Below, one piece after another: positions 30,068-42,056 of a stretch of 64,000 nucleotides of DNA. Both the position numbers and the translations under genes were made by a program. The first letter of the stretch is position 1, and every line of letters starts with the position of its first letter. The stretch covers positions 1,312,001 to 1,376,000 of the forward strand of contig CAXXTF010000002.1 of the NCBI GenBank assembly GCA_963665775.2. The letters run 5' to 3'. Below the pieces are notes generated by a model. The model had not been told where the DNA came from and searched no databases. It worked only from the letters and a program-made list of their open reading frames with translations. This stretch comes from Dehalococcoidia bacterium (GTDB lineage Bacteria; Chloroflexota; Dehalococcoidia; SM23-28-2; RBG-16-64-32).

Positions 30068-30155
30068 AGACCCTTCGCTGAGTTTATCCTGAGCGTAGCC
30101 GAAGGGCTCAGGGCGACATCTACGACAGCATCATTCTGAGCGAACCGAAGAATCC
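30068..30155. repeat. REP-like palindromic doublet, copy 1
   Basis: Reverse complement GTCGCCCTGAGCCCTTCGGCTACGCTCAGGATAAACTC matches 41243-41280; second half TCATTCTGAGCGAACCGAAGAATCC. Confidence 0.8.
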
Positions 30156-32226: not shown

Positions 32227-32910
32227 TTACACCCCCCGCTCGACCCGCGCCAGCGCCTCCTGCAGGCGCACCATATTGTCGGCCACAGACGCACGGTCGT
32301 TGAACACGGCCGAGGCCGCCACCAGCACGTTGGCCCCCGCCGCCGAGCAGCGGGGCGCGACCTCCGGGGTCACCCCCCCGTCCACCTCGATCTCGGCCCC
32401 CAGGCCCCCCTCATCGATGAGCTGTCGCAGGCGTCGCACCTTCTCCAGCGCCCCCTCGATGAACCGCTGGCCGGACCAGCCGGGGTTCACGCTCATCACC
32501 ATCACCTGGTCCACCTCCGGCAGGATCCCCTCCAAGGCGCCGACCGGCGTCCCCGGGTTCAGACAGATCCCCGCCCGCTTGCCGCGGGCCCGCACCTCCT
32601 GAGCGATGCGGTGGGGGTGAACGGTCGCTTCCACGTGCACGTTGATGATGTCGCCACCGGCGTCCATGAACGCCCCCATGTGGCGCTCTGGCTCCACCAC
32701 CATCAGGTGGATGTCCAGGGTCAGCGAGGTGACCCGCCGCACCGCCTCCACGACGGGCGTGCCCATGGAGATGACGGGTACGAACCGCCCGTCCATCACA
32801 TCGATGTGGATGTACGCCGCCCCCGCGGCCTCTGCCTCGCGCACCTGCTCCCCCAGCCGCCCGAAGTCCGCCGAGAGGATGGAGGGGGCGAGCTTAACGC
32901 CGTTCGTCAT
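32227..32910 (-). CDS. rpe: Ribulose-phosphate 3-epimerase
   Basis: LAPSILSADF, HIDVMDGRFVP, MSVNPG, EVDGG; ATG overlaps argH stop. Confidence 0.95.
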   Translation of the reverse strand: MTNGVKLAPSILSADFGRLGEQVREAEAAGAAYIHIDVMDGRFVPVISMGTPVVEAVRRVTSLTLDIHLMVVEPERHMGAFMDAGGDIINVHVEATVHPHRIAQEVRARGKRAGICLNPGTPVGALEGILPEVDQVMVMSVNPGWSGQRFIEGALEKVRRLRQLIDEGGLGAEIEVDGGVTPEVAPRCSAAGANVLVAASAVFNDRASVADNMVRLQEALARVERGV

Positions 32911-34292
32911 TGCGCTGTCTCCAGCCGCTGTCGGGCCCGCTTGAGGGCCGCCGCCACCTGCCTCGATGACGTGCCGCCGGGCGCGTCCCGGGCCTCGATG
33001 GCCGACCACACGTCCAGCCGCAGCACGTCCTCCTCGAACAGGGGCGAGAAACCTCGGTACTCCTCCAGAGTCAGCTCGTTCAGCGCCTTGCCTTCAGACT
33101 CAGCCTTCCGCACCAGCTCAGCCACCGCCTGGTGCGCCTCCCGGAAGGGCACCCCTTTGCGGACCAGGTAATCTGCCACGTCGGTCGCCACGGTATAGGA
33201 GCCAGCGGCAGCAGCCTCTGCCCTGGCGGCGTTCACGCGCAGCGCCGGCAACAGCGCCGCCAGCACCTCCAGGCTCGGAAGCAGCGTATCCACCGTGTCG
33301 AACAGCGGCTCCTTATCCTCCTGCAGGTCGCGATTGTAGGCCAGGGGCAGCCCCTTGAGCGTCGTCAGGATCGCCATCAGGTTTCCGTAAACACGGCCGG
33401 TGCGGCCGCGGGCCAGCTCGGCCACGTCCGGGTTCCGCTTCTGAGGCATGATGCTCGATCCGGTGGCGAACTCCCTCGGCAGCTCGATGAATCCGAACTC
33501 GCCGCTCGACCACAAGACGATCTCCTCCGCCAGCCGCGAGAGGTGCATCATCGTGATCGCCGCCGCCGCCTGGAACTCCACCACGAAGTCGCGGTCGGCC
33601 ACGGCGTCCACGCTGTTCTCGGCGATGCGCGAGAACCCCAGTTCCCGCGCCACGAACTCGCGATCGATCGGGTATGGCACGCCGGCCAGGGCACCTGAGC
33701 CAAGGGGCAGCTCATCGGCTCGGCCACGGCAGTCGGCGAACCGCCCGGCGTCCCTCTCCAGCATCTGGAAGTAGGCCAGCAGGTGATGGGCCAGCAGCAG
33801 GGGCTGTGCCCGCTGCAAGTGGGTGTAGCCGGGCACTACCGTCTCCTGGCTGACCTCCGCCAGCTTCAGCAGGGCCGCCAGCAGCCCCGTGAGCCCCGCT
33901 ATCGCACCGTCACAGGCCTCCATGACGAACAGACGCACATCCGTGGCCACCTGGTCGTTGCGGGAGCGCGCTGTAGGCAGCCGGCCGGCCGCCTCGCCGA
34001 TCTTCTCGCGCAGGCGCGCCTCGATGTTCAGATGGATGTCCTCCAGCTCCTGGAGGAAGGAAAATTCGCCCCGCTCGATCTCCTGGCCTATCTCCTCCAA
34101 ACCTCGCTCGATGGCTTCAGCATCGGCGGCAGGGATGATCCCCTGCCGGGCGAGCATGCGGGCGTGCGCTATGGAGCCGGCGATGTCGTGCCGGTACAGC
34201 CGACGGTCAAATGCGACGGACGCCGTGTAGGCCAGGGCCAGCCGGTTCAGGCCGCTGGCGGTAGGGCTTTCGACAGGGTTACGTTCGGACAT
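32907..34292 (-). CDS. argH: Argininosuccinate lyase
   Basis: RSRNDQ, PGYTHLQRAQP, GSSIMPQKRNPD, YNRDLQEDK; TATAAT about 9 bp upstream of ATG. Confidence 0.96.
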   Translation of the reverse strand: MSERNPVESPTASGLNRLALAYTASVAFDRRLYRHDIAGSIAHARMLARQGIIPAADAEAIERGLEEIGQEIERGEFSFLQELEDIHLNIEARLREKIGEAAGRLPTARSRNDQVATDVRLFVMEACDGAIAGLTGLLAALLKLAEVSQETVVPGYTHLQRAQPLLLAHHLLAYFQMLERDAGRFADCRGRADELPLGSGALAGVPYPIDREFVARELGFSRIAENSVDAVADRDFVVEFQAAAAITMMHLSRLAEEIVLWSSGEFGFIELPREFATGSSIMPQKRNPDVAELARGRTGRVYGNLMAILTTLKGLPLAYNRDLQEDKEPLFDTVDTLLPSLEVLAALLPALRVNAARAEAAAAGSYTVATDVADYLVRKGVPFREAHQAVAELVRKAESEGKALNELTLEEYRGFSPLFEEDVLRLDVWSAIEARDAPGGTSSRQVAAALKRARQRLETAQ

Positions 34293-34353
34293 TGCGGGCT
34301 CATTATACGCCACGACGCCGCACGGGCCTTATACGAAGCCTTGCCGCCAGCAC

Positions 34354-35130
34354 CTAGCCAAAGATGGGCAGGCCCTTCAGATCGCTAAGCGTTTCGATGA
34401 CGTAGTCGGGAACGACGGACGCCGGCGGCTCCGGCCTGTCCTCCGTCTCCCGCGCGTCTTCCCTGGGCGCGGGAGACCGCCACACGGCGGTCATCCGCAG
34501 CGCCTGCGCCCCCTCCACGTCGCCCCGCAGGCTGTCACCCACCATGACCGCCGCCTCCGGCTCGATCCCCATATGGTCGAGGGCGTGCTGGAAGATGCGG
34601 GGATGCGGCTTCAGGTACCCCACCTGACAGGACATGGCAACGACTTCGAACAGCTCCGCCAGCCCCAACTCCCGCATCTCCTGCTGGAAGCGCAGTCCAT
34701 CCCAACCCCGGTTCGTCACCGAACCCAGCCGGTAGCCCCTCTCCTTGAGCCAGCGCAGGGTCTCCAGGACATCCGGGAAGAGCGTTCGCCCCACGAAGGC
34801 GCCTTCCAGGTTCCAGGCCTCCCATAGCTCCTCCGACTGCTCCGGCGTCAGCGCCAAGCCGTGCCCAGCGGAGACGCGGCGGCAAACGTCCGGATAGCCG
34901 GGGTCCCGGCAGTCGCCGTGAAAGGCCTCTCCCGTTGCCTCCTCCGTGGCCGCCCGGATATCGCGAGCCAGGAAGAAGCGCTCCGGCGTCACCTCGAACC
35001 CCCAACGCCTCAGGAGACCGAAGATGCGCCGCCGCGTCTCCGCCGCCACCACATCCTGAGGCGGCCGGTCCGGGAAATGCCACAACGTGTTGCCCAGGTC
35101 GAAGAGGACAGCAATGATCCGAGCGGTCAT
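34354..35130 (-). CDS. HAD-family hydrolase
   Basis: FDLGNTL, KPHPRIF, MVGDS...D. Confidence 0.88.
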   Translation of the reverse strand: MTARIIAVLFDLGNTLWHFPDRPPQDVVAAETRRRIFGLLRRWGFEVTPERFFLARDIRAATEEATGEAFHGDCRDPGYPDVCRRVSAGHGLALTPEQSEELWEAWNLEGAFVGRTLFPDVLETLRWLKERGYRLGSVTNRGWDGLRFQQEMRELGLAELFEVVAMSCQVGYLKPHPRIFQHALDHMGIEPEAAVMVGDSLRGDVEGAQALRMTAVWRSPAPREDARETEDRPEPPASVVPDYVIETLSDLKGLPIFG

Positions 35131-35252
35131 GACGCCCGGATGAAGGTGACCACCTGGCGCGCCAAATCGACCTGAGCGAACGATAGGATAACGGTCCCCT
35201 CCGTCCGCGCGGAATCACCCAGGAACTTGGCCAAGGGGCCGTATTTAGGCAT
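35127..35252 (-). CDS. 41-aa small ORF, possibly an internally deleted gene remnant
   Basis: MPKYGPLAKFLGDSARTEGTVILSFAQVDLARQVVTFIRAS; ATGA overlap with HAD start. Confidence 0.5.
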   Translation of the reverse strand: MPKYGPLAKFLGDSARTEGTVILSFAQVDLARQVVTFIRAS

Positions 35253-35306
35253 CACCGCCCGCCTTGCGGACACCTAACACAAACGGTACGGTGGCGACGG
35301 TCGGAG

Positions 35307-36515
35307 TCACTTCTCTTCCTCCTCCAGCATCTGCGCCCTGGCTTGCACGCGCACCGGCAGTCCCCAGATGTGTATGAAGCCGGGCGCCGCCGTCCGGTCG
35401 AAGGCGTCCTCCTTATCGTACGTCGCCAGGGAGAAATCGTACAGGCTCCGGGGCGACTTCCGTCCCACCACCGTCGCGCTCCCCTTGTGTAGCCTCACCC
35501 GCACCAGCCCGCTGACGTGCCGCTGGCTGGACTGCACGTAGGCCGCCATGTCCTGATGATGCGCCGTGAACCACAGCCCGTTGTAGATCAGCTCCGCGTA
35601 TTCCTGGGCGATACGCGCCTTCAGCCGTATCTGATCCTTAGACAGCGTCAGCGCCTCCAGCCCCTCGTGGGCGGCCAGCAGGGTCACCGCCGCCGGCGCC
35701 TCGTATATCTCGCGCGACTTGATCCCCACCAGCCGGTCCTCCACCATGTCCACCCTTCCCACCCCGTGCTCGCCGGCCAGTTCGTTCAGCCCCTTCACCA
35801 GTGACACGGCATCGATCTCCCGACCGTCCAATGAGACCGGCAGCCCGCGCTCGAAGCCGATCTCCACGTAGGCCGGCTTCTCCGGCGCCTCCACCGGCGA
35901 CTTCGTCCAGGCGTAGATCTCGGCCGGCGGCTCCTGCCAGGGGTCCTCCAGCCGCCCGCACTCGATGCTGCGCCCCCACAGGTTCTCGTCGATGCTGTAC
36001 GGGCTCGCCTTCGTCACCGACACGGGGATGGCATGCTCCTGGGCATAGACGATCTCCCCCTCGCGATCCATATCCCATTCCCGCAGCGGCGCCACGATCT
36101 GTAGCTCCGGCGCCAGCGCCTGCACTGACACGTCCAAGCGCACCTGATCATTCCCCTTGCCGGTGCAGCCGTGGGCCACCGCCGTTGCCCCCTCCGCCTT
36201 CGCCGCCGCCACCATCTCCCGAGCGATGAGGGGCCGCGACAGGGCCGTGGCCAGAGGGTAGTGCCCTTCGTAGCGAGCCCCCGCCGCCAGGGCCGGGAAG
36301 GCGAAGTGCCGCAGGAACGTCTCCTGAGTGTCCTGCCACAGACACTTGGCCGCCCCCGCCGCCATCGCCCGCGAACGCAGCGCCTCCCGCTCCCGGTCCA
36401 TCCCGACGTCCACCGTAAGGGCGACAACGTCGTAGCCCCGCTCCTCCTTCAGCCAGCGGATGGCCACGGAGGTGTCGAGGCCGCCGGAATAGGCCAGCAC
36501 TATCTTCTCAGACAT
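35307..36515 (-). CDS. argG: Argininosuccinate synthase
   Basis: LAYSGGLDTS, HGCTGKGNDQVR, SIDENLWGRSIE, GIKSREIYE. Confidence 0.97.
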   Translation of the reverse strand: MSEKIVLAYSGGLDTSVAIRWLKEERGYDVVALTVDVGMDREREALRSRAMAAGAAKCLWQDTQETFLRHFAFPALAAGARYEGHYPLATALSRPLIAREMVAAAKAEGATAVAHGCTGKGNDQVRLDVSVQALAPELQIVAPLREWDMDREGEIVYAQEHAIPVSVTKASPYSIDENLWGRSIECGRLEDPWQEPPAEIYAWTKSPVEAPEKPAYVEIGFERGLPVSLDGREIDAVSLVKGLNELAGEHGVGRVDMVEDRLVGIKSREIYEAPAAVTLLAAHEGLEALTLSKDQIRLKARIAQEYAELIYNGLWFTAHHQDMAAYVQSSQRHVSGLVRVRLHKGSATVVGRKSPRSLYDFSLATYDKEDAFDRTAAPGFIHIWGLPVRVQARAQMLEEEEK

Positions 36516-36524
36516 ATCTCACCC

Positions 36525-37727
36525 TCACTTCGATGCGTCAGCCTCGATGCCGGCCAGCACCCGGTCCAGGATCTCCACCGCCTGATCGATCTCGCCCTCG
36601 CTCACCGTCAGGGGCGGCATCAGCCGCAGGGCCGTGGGCTTCACGTTGTTGGCCAGCAACCCGCCCGCCAGGCAGAGACGCACCGCCTCCTCCGCCGCCT
36701 CGCGGCCCAGCTCGACGGCCCACAGCAGCCCCCTGCCCCGCACCTCCGTCACGATCGGATGCCGGTCCGCCAGCGAGTGCAGCCGTCGCTCCAGATGCTC
36801 GCCCTTGCGGGCCACCTGGGCCGAAAGATCATGCTCGATGACGTACTTCACGACCGCGTATCCGACCGCCGTGGCCAGCGGGTTACCGCCGAAGGTGGTG
36901 CCATGCTCCCCCACGCCCAGCGCGGAGCAGTGCTCCTTGACCAGGAAGGCGCCGATAGGGAAGCCGCCGCCTAGCCCCTTGGCCAACGCCATCACGTCCG
37001 GCTCTACCCCGTAGAGCTGGTGCGCGAACAGCTTCCCTGTGCGCCCGATCCCCGTCTGCACCTCGTCCAGCATCAGGAGGAGCCCCGCCTCGTCGCACCA
37101 GGCTCGGACCTGGCGCAGATAGCCGTCGGCGGGCACGTTGACGCCGCCCTCGCCCTGAATCGGCTCCAGGAGGACGGCCGCCGTCCTCTCCGTCGTCGCC
37201 TTCCTGATCGCCTCCGCATCGTTGAAGGGCACCCGCACGAACCCCTCGGGCAACGGCGTAAAAGGGGCCCGATACTTCTCCGTACTGCCGGCCGTCAGCG
37301 TAGCCAGCGTACGGCCGTGAAAGGAACCCTCCGCCACGATGATCTCGGAGGCGCCGTCGCGCTTCTCCTTCCCCCACTTGCGGGCCAGCTTGATGCAGCC
37401 CTCCACCGCCTCCGCGCCGCTATTGCAGAAGAACGCCTTATCCAGGCAGCTGTTCTCGCACAGGAGCTGGGCCAGCTTGAGCTGCGGGATCGTGTAGTAG
37501 ATGTTGGAGACCTGCATCAGCTCCCGCGCCTGCTCCGTCACCGCCTTCACCACCGCTGGATGGCTATGACCGAGGCTCACCACCGCGATTCCGGCCACAA
37601 AGTCCAGATATTCGCGGCCCGCGTCGTCCCAGACGCGGCTGCCCTCACCTCGCACCAGCGTCACCGGCAGCCGCTTACCGGTAGGGAGAAAGTAACGACT
37701 CTCCAGCTCGATCCAGTTCTCGCCCAT
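36525..37727 (-). CDS. argD: Acetylornithine aminotransferase
   Basis: NSGAEAVE, FHGRT, EPIQGEGG, DEVQTG, AKGLGGG; arg operon context. Confidence 0.92.
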   Translation of the reverse strand: MGENWIELESRYFLPTGKRLPVTLVRGEGSRVWDDAGREYLDFVAGIAVVSLGHSHPAVVKAVTEQARELMQVSNIYYTIPQLKLAQLLCENSCLDKAFFCNSGAEAVEGCIKLARKWGKEKRDGASEIIVAEGSFHGRTLATLTAGSTEKYRAPFTPLPEGFVRVPFNDAEAIRKATTERTAAVLLEPIQGEGGVNVPADGYLRQVRAWCDEAGLLLMLDEVQTGIGRTGKLFAHQLYGVEPDVMALAKGLGGGFPIGAFLVKEHCSALGVGEHGTTFGGNPLATAVGYAVVKYVIEHDLSAQVARKGEHLERRLHSLADRHPIVTEVRGRGLLWAVELGREAAEEAVRLCLAGGLLANNVKPTALRLMPPLTVSEGEIDQAVEILDRVLAGIEADASK

Positions 37728-37740
37728 CCTTACTCCCCCT

Positions 37741-38517
37741 TCATCCTACGATGGTCCCTGCCGGCTCGCCCTCCACAAGGGAGAGCAGGGCGTGCTCGTG
37801 GCGGCCATCGGCGATCACGCTGAGGCTCCCCGACCGGGCCGCCTGCAGACAGGCCTCCACCTTGGGGATCATGCCCCCCTCCACGACACCGGAATCGATA
37901 AGCCGGGCCGCTTCCTCGACCGAGAGGCGGGCAGCAGTCTGACCGTCGTCGGAGCGGACGCCTTCCACATCGGTCAGAAAGGCCAGCCAGCGCGCCCCCA
38001 GCGCCGCGGCCACGGCACCGGCCGCGGTGTCGGCGTTCGTGTTCAGAAGCTGATCCGTGGGCCGCTCCCCCTCCCACTGCGCGGCCACCGGCGCCACCAC
38101 CGGCACGTATCCGTCGTCCAGCAGCCGCAGGAGAGGACGGCTATCCACCATGTCCACATCCCCCACGAAACCCAGCCTCTCATCGCGAATGTGGGCCCGC
38201 AGCAGCCCGCCGTCCGCCCCCGAAAGGCCGACGGCGCGTCCCCCCAGGGCCGCCAGAGATGCCACCAGCGTCTTATTAACCAGCCCGGCCAGCACGGCCA
38301 CCACAACCTCCAGCGACTCGCCGTCCGTAACGCGCAGGCCCCGCTCGAACCGAGTAGGCACGTTATGTCTAGACAGCCACTCGCTGATGAGGGCGCCCCC
38401 TCCGTGCACCACCACCGGTCGCAGCCCTCGACGCTGGAGCGCCACCAGATCCTCCAGCGCCGTGTCGTGGCTGCCCAGGGTGGAGCCGCCTATCTTCACC
38501 ACCAGAATGTCAGACAT
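37741..38517 (-). CDS. argB: Acetylglutamate kinase
   Basis: VVKIGG, VHGGG, GLRVTD, NADTAA, GGMIPK. Confidence 0.95.
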   Translation of the reverse strand: MSDILVVKIGGSTLGSHDTALEDLVALQRRGLRPVVVHGGGALISEWLSRHNVPTRFERGLRVTDGESLEVVVAVLAGLVNKTLVASLAALGGRAVGLSGADGGLLRAHIRDERLGFVGDVDMVDSRPLLRLLDDGYVPVVAPVAAQWEGERPTDQLLNTNADTAAGAVAAALGARWLAFLTDVEGVRSDDGQTAARLSVEEAARLIDSGVVEGGMIPKVEACLQAARSGSLSVIADGRHEHALLSLVEGEPAGTIVG

Positions 38518-38645
38518 GCCTTCCCATCCTGGCATCTCCTCCGCCGCACCCTCTGGGCTGCGGCATCAATTCGCATTTGCCTGACCCGGCCTTCAGGCTG
38601 GGGTGGTCGCACAAGAACCCGTGTCCCATCTGTGCCCTGCTATCG

Positions 38646-39866
38646 CTAAGTAGTGTAAAGACTGTTCAGGCGCACGTACTCCTCCGTGATGTCCGAGCCC
38701 CAAGCCGTGGCCTCCGCCTCCCCCAGCCCCAGGCCCACCCGGATGCGCACCTCGCGCGGCGCCAGGCAGTCCGCCGCCTGTGCCTTGTCGTAGGGTTGCG
38801 GCGACCCGTCCCGAAACAGGCACAGCTCGCCGCCGTCAGGGGTGCCCAGATACAGCGCCACGCTCTCCTCCCCCATCTCGGCGCCGCTGTTCCCGACCGC
38901 CGCCAGGATACGGCCCCAGTTGGGGTCGCGCCCGTACACCGCCGTCTTCACGGCCAGCGAGCGTACCACCTCCCGCGCCGCCTTACGGGCGTCCGCCAGC
39001 GAGCGAGCGCCACCCACCTTCGCCTCGATCACCTTAGTCGAACCCTCAGCATCGGCCACGATGGCCCCGGCCAGATAGGTGCAGACCTGGGCCAGCGCCG
39101 AGGCGAAGGCGTCCGACCGGAGCTGTCCCCGGTCGATAGCCTCACCGCCACCCTGACCGTTGGCCAGCACCACCACCATGTCGTTCGTGCTGGTATCGCT
39201 GTCCACATCGATCATGTTGAAGGAGGCCGCCACCGCCTCCCCGAGGGTCTCTGCCAGGAACGCCGAGGCCACTGGCGCGTCGGTCGTGATGAAGGAGAGC
39301 ATCGTGGCCATGTTGGGATGGATCATGCCCGCCCCCTTGACCACGCCGCCCACCGTATACGCTCCGAATCGCACCGCGACACGCTTGGGCCGCGTGTCCG
39401 TAGTCATGATGGCGCGGGCGAAGTCCAGGCCACCCGCCGCCGAGAGCTCTATCCGCTCGACGCCGCGACGGATGCGATCCATGGGGAGGTAGGGGAGGCC
39501 GATGATCCCGGTTGAGGCCACCACCACGTCGTACGGGTCGACGTTCAACTTACTTGCGGCCAGCGCTGCCATCTCCACCGCATCCTGCATCCCCTGCTGG
39601 CCGGTAGCGGCGTTGGCGCAGCCACTGTTGGCGATGACCGCCTGCCCGCGGCCGCCAGCCAGGTGCTTCTGGGTGATCAGCAGAGGCGCCGCCTTCAGCC
39701 GGTTACTGGTGTAGACCCCGGCGGCCGTACAGGGCGTCTCCGAATAGAGGAGGCCCAGATCGAGCCTCTCAGCGTCCGGCCGGATATCGACCCTGGCGGC
39801 TCCGGCCAGGAAGCCAGCGGGCGTCGTTACGTCGCCATCCGCTATCAGTTCCGTATCTTCGACCAT
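38646..39866 (-). CDS. argJ: Ornithine acetyltransferase
   Basis: NSGCANA, IMTTD, KGAGMIHPNMATML, DTSTND, DPNWGRI. Confidence 0.96.
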   Translation of the reverse strand: MVEDTELIADGDVTTPAGFLAGAARVDIRPDAERLDLGLLYSETPCTAAGVYTSNRLKAAPLLITQKHLAGGRGQAVIANSGCANAATGQQGMQDAVEMAALAASKLNVDPYDVVVASTGIIGLPYLPMDRIRRGVERIELSAAGGLDFARAIMTTDTRPKRVAVRFGAYTVGGVVKGAGMIHPNMATMLSFITTDAPVASAFLAETLGEAVAASFNMIDVDSDTSTNDMVVVLANGQGGGEAIDRGQLRSDAFASALAQVCTYLAGAIVADAEGSTKVIEAKVGGARSLADARKAAREVVRSLAVKTAVYGRDPNWGRILAAVGNSGAEMGEESVALYLGTPDGGELCLFRDGSPQPYDKAQAADCLAPREVRIRVGLGLGEAEATAWGSDITEEYVRLNSLYTT

Positions 39867-39903
39867 CTTTTCAGACCCCCCTCAGGATACAGGCCGGCAG
39901 AGC

Positions 39904-40956
39904 CTACGGGTAGACGGACGGGGCCTCCAGCCCCATGGTCTCCGGAAGGCCCAGCACCAGGTTCATATTCTGGATCGCCTGCCCAGCCGCCCCCTTCACC
40001 AGGTTATCGACGACGCTGACCACCACCAACCGCTCCGTGCGCGTATCCACTGTGGGATAGAGCAGGCACACGTTGCTGCCCTGCGTCTGCTTGGTGGAGG
40101 GCGGCCTGTCCACCACCCGCACGAACGGCTCCCCCTGATAGTAGTACCGGTACAGCTCCCGCACCGCCTCCTTGGCCGCCTCGCCTGCCGGCAGGCGGCC
40201 CTCCATCAGGGTCGCGTAGCAGGTGGAGAGGATGCCCCGCGTCATGGGGATCAGATGGGGCGTGAACGTCACCCGGGGCCACGACGGCTGTGACCCCGCC
40301 GAGAGCGGCCACATCCGCGCCAGCTCCTGGACGATCTCCGGCAGGTGCCGGTGCCCGTCCAGGCCGTAGGCGGAGACGCTCTCGTCCGCCTCGGCAAAGT
40401 GATAGGTCAGGTCCAGGGTACGCCCGGCGCCAGATATGCCCGATTTGGAGTCCACAATGATCTCCGTGCCGACGATCCCCGCCTTCACCGCCGGCGCCAG
40501 ACCCAGGAGGGCGCTCTCCGGATAGCAGCCCGGGTTAGCGATGAGCCTGGAGGCGCGCACCGCCTCCCGGTTCAGCTCCGTCAGGCCGTAGGTCGCCCGG
40601 AGCAGGAGGTCCGGCGCTGGATGCTCCGCGCCGTACCAGGCGGCGTACTCCTGGGGATCGCGCAGGCGAAAATCGGCGCTCATATCGACGATCGGCAGGC
40701 CGGCGCGGGCCAACGGCGCCACCGCCTCAGCGCTGGCCACGTGAGGCAGGGCCGAGAAGACGAAGTCCACCTCGCCCATCTCCGGCTCCACCACCAGATC
40801 GTAGCAGGCCAGGTGGGGAAAGACCTCGGCCAGGGTCTTACCGGCGGCGCTGCGACCGCTGACGCTGGTCAATCGGGCCTCCGGGTGGGTGTACAGCAGC
40901 CGGGCCAGCTCGGCCCCGGCGTAACCTGTCACATTAATGATCCCTACCCTGACCAT
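39904..40956 (-). CDS. argC: N-acetyl-gamma-glutamyl-phosphate reductase
   Basis: TGYAG, ANPGCYP, SGISGAG, DNLVKGAAGQAIQN; GGAGGAG RBS. Confidence 0.96.
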   Translation of the reverse strand: MVRVGIINVTGYAGAELARLLYTHPEARLTSVSGRSAAGKTLAEVFPHLACYDLVVEPEMGEVDFVFSALPHVASAEAVAPLARAGLPIVDMSADFRLRDPQEYAAWYGAEHPAPDLLLRATYGLTELNREAVRASRLIANPGCYPESALLGLAPAVKAGIVGTEIIVDSKSGISGAGRTLDLTYHFAEADESVSAYGLDGHRHLPEIVQELARMWPLSAGSQPSWPRVTFTPHLIPMTRGILSTCYATLMEGRLPAGEAAKEAVRELYRYYYQGEPFVRVVDRPPSTKQTQGSNVCLLYPTVDTRTERLVVVSVVDNLVKGAAGQAIQNMNLVLGLPETMGLEAPSVYP

Positions 40957-40967
40957 GGCGCTCCTCC

Positions 40968-41006
40968 AAAAAGTAAACCGCCCCACCACTGTTCAGCGGT
41001 GGGGCG
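40968..41006 (-). terminator. Intrinsic terminator in arg operon leader (attenuator)
   Basis: CGCCCCACCGCU-GAAC-AGUGGUGGGGCG then GUUUACUUUUU immediately before argC RBS. Confidence 0.88.
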
Positions 41007-41041
41007 TCTTCGTCTCCCTGTGTGCTTCTGCCGCTGGGCGT

Positions 41042-41128
41042 CTACCCGCTGGCACACCAAAGCCCACCGCTCCTCGAGCCAAGTCGAGGTCGTCGCTGGG
41101 CGATCCTGACGCCTGCCTGCGTTGCCAT
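41042..41128 (-). CDS. Putative Arg-rich leader peptide (28 aa) of arg operon
   Basis: MATQAGVRIAQRRPRLGSRSGGLWCASG; Arg codons AGG, CGA, CGA, CGA, AGG; contains a segment complementary to the terminator 5' arm. Confidence 0.7.
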   Translation of the reverse strand: MATQAGVRIAQRRPRLGSRSGGLWCASG

Positions 41129-41138
41129 GTCAGTGCCC

Positions 41139-41168
41139 ACGATAGCCAGCCACCCCTCGTGCTGTCAA
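41139..41168 (-). promoter_or_regulatory. sigma70-type promoter of arg operon
   Basis: TTGACA (41168-41163), 18 bp, TATCGT (41144-41139). Confidence 0.7.
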
Positions 41169-41203
41169 GGCCTACCAACCTGCCTGGGGAGTAGCCCTCC
41201 CCT

Positions 41204-41292
41204 GGATTACTCGCTCCACTCAGAATGACAGCCGCACGGCCCGTCACCCTGAGCCCTTCGGCTACGCTCAGGATAAACTCCGTGAACGGTCT
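41204..41292. repeat. REP-like palindromic doublet, copy 2 (inverted relative to copy 1)
   Basis: GGATTACTCGCTCCACTCAGAATGAC...GTCACCCTGAGCCCTTCGGCTACGCTCAGGATAAACTC. Confidence 0.8.
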
Positions 41293-41370
41293 CTAATCCG
41301 GGAGGCGCCTCGGGTCGTGAGGCCGCGTCGCCGCCGGCGCCTACCGATACCTATCGCGGCCGATCCGGGG

Positions 41371-41427
41371 TTGCCGGCGGCGACGTTGGCCGCTAGTATG
41401 GAAACCAACCGACGCGTCGGTTGGTTT
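41371..41427 (+). promoter_or_regulatory. Promoter plus TetR operator of tetR-men operon
   Basis: TTGCCG, 17 bp, TAGTAT, then perfect 26-bp palindrome AAACCAACCGACGCGTCGGTTGGTTT (41402-41427). Confidence 0.8.
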
Positions 41428-41432
41428 TGAGC

Positions 41433-42056
41433 ATGACGACACAGCAACCTCGGGCCCAGGAACGGCGACATCGCATTCTGGACGCGGCCCTGCGCACCTT
41501 CTCCCGCAGAGGATATCGTGACACTAGCGTGGATGAGATCGCAGAGGGGTCCCGCACCTCCAAGGGCGGCGTCTACTTCCACTTCCCCAATAAGGAGGCG
41601 ATCTTCCTCGCCCTCCTCAACAGATCCACAGCCCACCTGTTGGAGAGGATCGAGACGGCGATGGCCGCCCAGGAGGACCCCATCGCCAAGGCCGACGCCG
41701 CCCTGCTCACCGTTCTCCGCACCTTCGCCAATCACCGCGCCCTCGCCCGCTTATTCATGCTGGAGGCCCTGGGGGCCGGCCGCGACTTTCACCAACGCAT
41801 GTCGGAGATCCGCAGCGAGTTCGCCGCAATCATCCAGAGGCAGCTGGACGACGCAGTCCGGCAGGGCATCCTCCAGCCTCTCGACACGGAGGTCGCCGGC
41901 CGCGCCTGGTTCGGGGCTCTGGCCGAGATCACAACGAACTGGGTCTTCTCCGGCCAGCCGGAACGACTGGAGGACGCCTTCACCGCCCTCAGGCCGCTCC
42001 TGATGCGAAGCGTGGGGCTCACCAGCAACTCTCATCTCGAGATTCGACAGCGATGA
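41433..42056 (+). CDS. TetR/AcrR family regulator
   Basis: ILDAALRTFSRRGYRDTSVDEIA...SKGGVYFHFPNKEAIF; stop overlaps menF start. Confidence 0.93.
   Translation: MTTQQPRAQERRHRILDAALRTFSRRGYRDTSVDEIAEGSRTSKGGVYFHFPNKEAIFLALLNRSTAHLLERIETAMAAQEDPIAKADAALLTVLRTFANHRALARLFMLEALGAGRDFHQRMSEIRSEFAAIIQRQLDDAVRQGILQPLDTEVAGRAWFGALAEITTNWVFSGQPERLEDAFTALRPLLMRSVGLTSNSHLEIRQR

Follow-up and report, generated by a model that had tools for sequence, protein, structure and literature searches.

The window, by which we mean the whole 64,000-nucleotide stretch that was analysed, carries on its minus strand a run of arginine biosynthesis genes, argC-J-B-D-G-(HAD)-H. Family models assign them as follows:

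32907-40956, minus strand: the operon argC-J-B-D-G-(HAD)-H as a whole, putatively regulated from upstream of argC
39904-40956, minus strand: argC (NCBIfam equivalog model, above cut-off)
38646-39866, minus strand: argJ (NCBIfam equivalog model, above cut-off)
37741-38535, minus strand: argB (NCBIfam equivalog model, above cut-off)
36525-37727, minus strand: argD (subfamily model, above cut-off)
35307-36515, minus strand: argG (NCBIfam equivalog model, above cut-off)
34354-35130, minus strand: HAD hydrolase gene between argG and argH (best model TIGR02253, below its cut-off)
32907-34313, minus strand: argH (NCBIfam equivalog model, above cut-off)

The argF gene stands alone elsewhere in the genome (G000:C2:823971-824867, minus strand), and its short upstream region contains neither a leader nor a terminator of the kind described below, so that the candidate attenuator covers the arginine pathway only in part. 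In the carB region (G000:C2:1250616-1259005), a weaker carbamoyltransferase-family match lies approximately 4 kb from carB, and we have assumed it to be pyrB.

Upstream of the arg promoter lies a divergent gene for a TetR-family regulator (41421-42056, plus strand), for which the best models are FadR- or ScbR-like and score below their cut-offs; a minus-strand ORF that overlaps it (41268-41735) gave no family match. Just upstream of the promoter there is also a 34-nt element with the hairpin CCTGAGC...GCTCAGG (41247-41280, minus strand), which has one further copy in the genome, inverted, at window positions 30080-30113. Similar repeats of the GAGCGCAGCGAAGG type are found between the terminator and argC in two relatives (L021 and L028).

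The region between this promoter and argC contains the following elements, some of which are named for the RNA segments that they encode:

41163-41168, minus strand: -35 hexamer TTGACA (consensus scan)
41139-41144, minus strand: -10 hexamer TATCGT, separated from the -35 hexamer by an 18-nt spacer
41042-41128, minus strand: leader ORF of 28 codons plus TAG (ATG at 41128-41126, stop TAG at 41044-41042)
41084-41095, minus strand: arginine cluster CGA CGA CCT CGA (codons 12-15, R-R-P-R)
41093-41101, minus strand: segment 1, the 5′ strand of the 1:2 hairpin, overlapping the first arginine codon of the cluster
41062-41071, minus strand: segment 2, AGCGGTGGGC (codons 20-23), whose predicted partner is either segment 1 or, as the antiterminator, the 5′ arm of the terminator
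40995-41006, minus strand: segment 3, the terminator 5′ arm CGCCCCACCGCT (consensus scan)
40979-40990, minus strand: segment 4, the terminator 3′ arm AGTGGTGGGGCG (consensus scan)
40968-40978, minus strand: T-tract GTTTACTTTTT (sequence and consensus scan)
40961-40967, minus strand: argC Shine-Dalgarno sequence GGAGGAG, with the argC ATG at 40956

Consensus scans of positions 40700-41500 found one promoter-like site, versus 0.1 expected from shuffles, and one terminator-like site, versus 0.4 expected. The leader ORF encodes the peptide MATQAGVRIAQRRPRLGSRSGGLWCASG, with arginine codons at positions 8 (AGG), 12, 13 and 15 (all CGA) and 19 (AGG). The original prediction, which had described on the minus strand a TTGACA-18-TATCGT promoter, an ATG 10 nt later and a 28-residue ORF with five arginines, all encoded by CGA or AGG, was correct on each of these points. 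Only ten bases, GGGCACTGAC, separate the -10 box from the ATG, and they include no Shine-Dalgarno sequence. The same holds for the relatives described below, in all of which the start codon lies 9-10 nt past the -10 box without a Shine-Dalgarno sequence, implying leaderless or nearly leaderless translation. We infer that in the window the ORF is read from a leaderless message, or from one with a 5′ UTR of no more than about 3 nt. The 5′ leader of this biosynthetic operon thus contains a short and presumably translatable ORF.

Conservation of the leader and of its reading frame

Of 41 related genomes, 39 proved to encode ArgC, and we compared 30 of the loci. The same layout is present in the 150-260 nt before argC in 27 of them and absent at the other three (L020, L029 and L030), so that the expectation that an ORF with clustered arginine codons would be kept upstream of argC in relatives was borne out. 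At one locus (L008, on G015:C55), approximately 100 extra bases and a further small ORF lie between the leader terminator and argC.

A covariance model built on 26 related leaders extended this distribution: among 65 genomes, all from the same Dehalococcoidia order, 52 have a single full-length match each. The matches span 24 of the order's 26 genera and include 20 of its 22 genomes with a completeness of 90% or more; the model found none in one genus (0/10 genomes) and none in one genus represented by a single genome. Second matches proved to be the palindromic terminator read on the opposite strand, and three weak extra matches in relatives were rejected since they fall inside open coding frames. 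Outside the order, 151 genomes sampled evenly across the class gave no convincing match, the best being a 30-nt match to the terminator only (E 1.4e-4). Likewise, among 20 argC upstream regions gathered by a protein-based search, mostly from other Dehalococcoidia or Chloroflexota, the leader was seen only in L031. The neighbors that bear names put the window's organism in the class Dehalococcoidia.

Within its own genome the element is single-copy, as its terminator motif occurs once. A genome-wide scan for short ORFs with an arginine cluster followed by a terminator gave five hits, one of which is the leader; two others, on inspection, lie antisense within long ORFs, and the remaining two are on contig C1. 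A second genome-wide scan, for a promoter, a 5′-terminal start codon, a short ORF and a terminator, gave four hits. One of these, at G000:C2:176269 (minus strand; locus L156, approximately 2380-2510), has TTGACA-17-TATGCT, a 5′-proximal ATG, a 25-codon ORF (MWSWSYIRAELKWG...) and a terminator, and lies directly before a 174-aa ORF; with its short ORF beginning MWSWSY it was considered as a trp leader and judged not to be one.

For analysis of the reading frame we used a sample of 42 distinct leaders, in which the elements, their order and their spacing can be read directly. All 42 have TTGACA or TTGACT at -35, and their -10 hexamers, at the same place, are TATCCT, TACCGT, TAACAT and similar sequences. 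The start codon lies 35-40 nt past the first base of the -35 hexamer in every leader (38-39 nt in 37 of them), and in a few ATG and GTG are exchanged at this position. In 35 leaders the start window offers a single ATG or GTG, which without exception shares the frame of the arginine cluster. The frames vary from 21 to 44 codons and end 27-46 nt before the terminator core. The first CGA of the cluster can be codon 8, 10, 11, 12, 14, 16 or 17; preservation of the frame through these seven N-terminal lengths implies that insertions and deletions occurred in multiples of three. Within the first 66 nt, CGA trinucleotides number 108 in frame 0 and only 11 and 13 in frames 1 and 2. Codons for the pathway's end product are clustered in every leader, at least two arginine codons per cluster in 42 of 42, and little is shared among the peptides beyond this RR[PA]R[PR]-type cluster and a Gly-rich stretch that is encoded by segment 2.

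These data bear on the possibility that the leader acts in cis as an untranslated RNA (a riboswitch, or a leader that binds a protein), in which CGACGACC and the G-run of segment 2 would bind a ligand or protein that chooses between antiterminator and terminator, the ORF being incidental. In keeping with such an RNA, the conserved columns are few and are conserved at the RNA level (the arginine cluster, the G-run and the terminator), and the CGA bias may be partly structural. However, it would not be expected to hold its promoter-to-start distance fixed in all 42 leaders while interchanging ATG and GTG, to keep a frame through seven N-terminal lengths with a strong excess of in-frame CGA (108 vs. 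11 and 13), or to retain arginine through synonymous changes to CGC, CGT and CGG. The leader also lacks a conserved multi-stem core (RNAalifold recovers the terminator alone) and has no counterpart in Rfam. We consider this explanation unlikely.

The regulators that might be expected at such a locus appear to be missing. The original prediction noted no argR in the neighborhood, and we found none in the genome as a whole (91% complete): neither PF02863 nor TIGR01529 has a match. PF02863 is also without a match in all 65 genomes of the order, the controls having matched in 8 of 14 well-known genomes. Its statement that no T-box consensus was visible is also upheld, as cmscan of positions 40500-41800, with E values up to 10, returned no riboswitch, T-box or leader family from Rfam, the sole hits being two lncRNA matches that fall short of their gathering scores and are attributed to chance. 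The leader families covered by this comparison presumably included His_leader, Trp_leader, Leu_leader and Thr_leader, among others.

This distribution also speaks to a less specific role, in which the hairpin would be a partial terminator or a stabilizing structure and the ORF would report general translation capacity. In a layout of this type, any slowing of translation would indeed give read-through. Against this, the element is tied to argC and occurs once per genome (the three weak extra matches being within coding frames), its arginine cluster is conserved while the adjacent codons vary, and the entire order lacks ArgR. We therefore find a constitutive or non-specific element to be quite improbable, and prefer a leader that responds specifically to arginine.

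Predicted alternative RNA structures

The 191-nt leader is predicted to be unusually stable for its composition (z = -2.94; 0 of 200 shuffles were equally stable), and its minimum free energy (MFE) structure consists of a long 1:2 hairpin, 41101-41062, plus the terminator. In that hairpin, 41101-41093 pairs with 41070-41062, and the helix CCUCGA/UCGAGG (41089-41084 with 41077-41072) forms the cap. The latter had been described as a hairpin overlapping the arginine codons, and it is present as such, but it is not conserved among the relatives and here is the apical part of the 1:2 stem. This longer 1:2 hairpin extends across the regulatory codons and would keep the antiterminator strand paired.

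The leader ORF is separated from argC by an intrinsic terminator (41006-40968), CGCCCCACCGCT-GAAC-AGTGGTGGGGCG, whose 12 base pairs (41006-40979) are followed by the tail GTTTACTTTT; the hairpin is predicted at -24.0 kcal/mol. Segment 2, AGCGGTGGGC, is complementary over 9 bp to CCCACCGCT within the terminator's 5′ arm, with a predicted duplex energy of -19.8 kcal/mol. This agrees with the earlier assertion that 41071-41062 is complementary to the 5′ arm of a 12-bp terminator with a U-tract, just before the argC ribosome binding site. In the relatives, the 14 nt past the core of the terminator stem include at least 5 T (median 7). Per-sequence duplex searches place their segment 2 at about codons 17-21, as a G-run such as GGUGGGG, GCGGUGGG or GGGGCUUUAG that is complementary to the 5′ arm of the terminator as well as to a segment 1 that coincides with the arginine cluster or immediately precedes it.

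The two conformers fold as the original prediction anticipated across the 42 leaders. The full-length MFE structure includes the terminator in all of them. When a stalled ribosome was mimicked by masking from the first bases to 14 nt past the A-site of the second cluster arginine codon, and the RNA was cut before segment 4, the core of segment 3 paired with segment 2 as the antiterminator in all 42. When the ribosome-free RNA was cut before segment 3, segment 2 paired in the 5′ direction, giving the 1:2 hairpin, in 41 of 42. By folding, then, the antiterminator is exclusive with the terminator and is exposed by a stalled ribosome, covariation in support of this being weak.

In each of the 27 leaders examined, the 2:3 duplex is more stable than dinucleotide shuffles are on average (z from -0.98 to -5.46, median -2.65), and in 18 of the 27 no more than 5 of 200 shuffles match it. 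The window's own antiterminator duplex, taken alone, is not significant (10 of 200 shuffles were as good), and the strength of the case is its conservation in relatives.

The original prediction had also expected covarying terminator-antiterminator pairs, and here the data did not bear it out. In a MAFFT alignment RNAalifold found compensatory changes in none of the 8 predicted pairs and recovered only the invariant core of the terminator; this alignment misplaces segment 2 between subfamilies. The lack of compensatory changes can be explained by invariance of the cores themselves, CCCCACC and GGUGGGG: the former is found in the terminator's 5′ arm in 25 of 26 aligned leaders, the remaining one having CCCTACC. 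An arm-swap control for covariation in the flanks was weak, with the cognate pair outperforming the mean non-cognate pair in 26 of 42 leaders (mean -22.6 vs. -21.4 kcal/mol) and no cognate advantage for the window's own leader. In some lineages the registers are shifted yet still complementary, and in one family the partner of CUAA(A/G)GCCCC is GGGGCUUUAG, a stretch that takes in the stop codon of the leader.

The geometry is tight. In the window, segment 2 begins 15 nt past the first base of the last codon of the cluster and 21-24 nt past those of codons 13 and 12. In many relatives, stalling at the last codon of the cluster would bring the ribosome over the start of segment 2.

Arginine codons and the proposed mechanism

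The arginine clusters of the 42 leaders contain 138 arginine codons, of which 108 (78%) are CGA, 11 CGT, 10 CGC, 6 CGG and 3 AGG; CGA is thus the conserved sensor codon, and the two AGG codons are specific to the window's genome. The leader's arginine codons had been described as scarce in nearby GC-rich genes. Both are minor codons, at 10.6% (CGA) and 10.8% (AGG) of arginine codons in a set of 1725 non-overlapping ORFs, each 150 aa or longer, from this genome, but they are not very rare: CGC accounts for 34.5%, CGG for 28.7% and CGT for 10.7%, and the lowest share is that of AGA (4.7%). Of the 168 arginine codons in the six arg genes, 11 are CGA and 16 are AGG.

The genome encodes tRNA-Arg with the anticodons UCG, CCG, GCG, UCU and CCU; tRNA-Arg(ACG) was not found (genome 91% complete), nor, in the same sequence, was TadA above its cut-off, the best match being 37 bits against a cut-off of 150, in a 381-aa frame (G000:C1:588287-588577). 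Given the lack of both, CGA would depend on a single isoacceptor, presumably tRNA-Arg(UCG), and decoding of the CGN box seems to follow the archaeal style, without inosine. Attenuators reportedly use codons read by the isoacceptor that is most sensitive to starvation (Elf and colleagues are said to have proposed this in 2003). The CGA bias could also come in part from the base-pairing needs of segment 1. In the ribosome-free 1:2 fold, the third base of the cluster CGA codons is paired in 46 of 108 cases and unpaired in 62, which implies that pairing is not the whole reason for the choice of CGA.

Taken together, the conserved ORF, its codons and the predicted folds support the trp/his/leu-type layout and the ribosome stalling that the original prediction put forward, and we think it probable that the region upstream of argC is a trp/his-type ribosome-mediated transcription attenuator that senses charged tRNA-Arg. 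The series of events that we infer is as follows. The transcript would begin with the leader AUG or no more than about 3 nt from it, and this 5′-terminal start codon would be where a ribosome loads. When Arg-tRNA(UCG) is scarce, the ribosome would stall at CGA codons 12-13 and cover segment 1, leaving segment 2 (AGCGGUGGG) free to capture the 5′ arm of the terminator as it emerges; the terminator would then not form, and transcription would read through into argCJBDGH. When Arg-tRNA is plentiful, the ribosome would reach the stop codon and segment 2 would be either covered or re-paired with segment 1, such that segments 3 and 4 would form the terminator and transcription would end at the T-tract. 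If the leader were not translated at all, the 1:2 hairpin and the terminator would both be expected to form. The operon is thus most likely switched on when charged arginine tRNA is low, a response whose sign fits a biosynthetic operon.

That sign also helps to distinguish tRNA sensing from arrest by the nascent peptide, as occurs in TnaC, SpeFL and the fungal arginine attenuator peptide. In that case the signal sensed would be free arginine or ornithine rather than tRNA charging, and the R-R-P-R-P peptide itself would bring the ribosome to a halt. The RR[PA]R[PR] motif, with its conserved proline, is indeed kept at the amino-acid level across the 42 leaders. However, a stall at high arginine would in this layout free segment 2 and activate the operon under arginine abundance, a response of the wrong sign. 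Moreover, the rest of the peptide is not conserved, and the preference for CGA among synonymous codons is a feature of codons rather than of the peptide. Arrest by the peptide itself thus seems very unlikely, and we favor sensing of charged tRNA-Arg by the translating ribosome.

More broadly, we lean towards the view that this whole Dehalococcoidia order, which has no ArgR, controls arginine synthesis by a leaderless leader peptide whose sensor is CGA, read through tRNA-Arg(UCG), with a CGN box that is decoded without tRNA-Arg(ACG) or TadA.

Relation to known regulatory systems

The layout of the enterobacterial leader-peptide attenuators (trpL, hisL, leuL, thrL, pheL and ilvL) is said to have been set out by Yanofsky in 1981 (cited in PMC4007540). 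The argC leader shares with these a short ORF in which codons for the amino acid made by the pathway are clustered, four segments that can pair as 1:2, 2:3 and 3:4, and a terminator that precedes the first biosynthetic gene. It differs from them in that the amino acid is arginine, in that its ORF has no Shine-Dalgarno sequence and starts at what is probably the 5′ end of the transcript, and in that sensing is proposed to depend on just one of the synonymous codons, CGA, and on the one isoacceptor that presumably reads it; nor is there any relationship in sequence or in Rfam. Arginine biosynthesis is the textbook case of control by the ArgR repressor, as opposed to the attenuated trp, his, leu and thr operons. 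Repression by ArgR/AhrC and arginine T-boxes perform the same task as that proposed for the argC leader, feedback control of arginine genes; a T-box, however, binds uncharged tRNA directly, whereas the proposed sensor of the argC leader is the translating ribosome.

The original prediction knew of no well-characterized arginine leader-peptide attenuator for an arg operon, and our search of the literature, which left most subscription journals outside its scope so that a prior description is possible, found no leader-peptide attenuator of an arginine biosynthetic operon. The nearest parallels each share part of the design. In Deinococcus deserti, leaderless leader peptides and attenuation by them have been proposed, with leaders named for cysS, tyrS and thrS; in the parts of that report available to us, the rows for argS and argG list no adjacent leader, and the organism has argR (PMC4007540). 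Two uORFs are described as sensing through arginine codons: Salmonella speF orf34, which acts on polyamine synthesis via Rho, RNase G and structure at the ribosome binding site (PMC6386406), and S. aureus rbfL, which acts on a biofilm regulator via occlusion of the ribosome binding site (PMC13009471). As far as the accessible portions of these two reports go, in both, as proposed for the argC leader, ribosomes that pause at arginine codons when arginine is limiting cause the mRNA downstream to be remodeled; unlike the argC leader, neither controls arginine biosynthesis or uses an intrinsic terminator and antiterminator. According to the portion consulted of a survey of Actinobacteria, no RNA element for arginine was found there, arginine being T-box regulated in other species (PMC1262725). 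A 2010 account, to judge from its main text, in which the word "arginine" does not appear, placed leader peptides in Proteobacteria and Actinobacteria only (PMC2965389).

The mechanism that we propose is itself a textbook one. Its use for arginine, with a leaderless start and one codon as the sensor, would be new, as would its occurrence in this lineage. An attenuator for arginine, conserved in bacteria that lack ArgR, would fill a gap in surveys of attenuation, and would extend leader-peptide attenuation to the Chloroflexota and to leaderless translation. It would also offer a natural test of the idea that attenuators sense through the isoacceptor most sensitive to starvation, and the element improves the annotation of many genomes of uncultured Dehalococcoidia.
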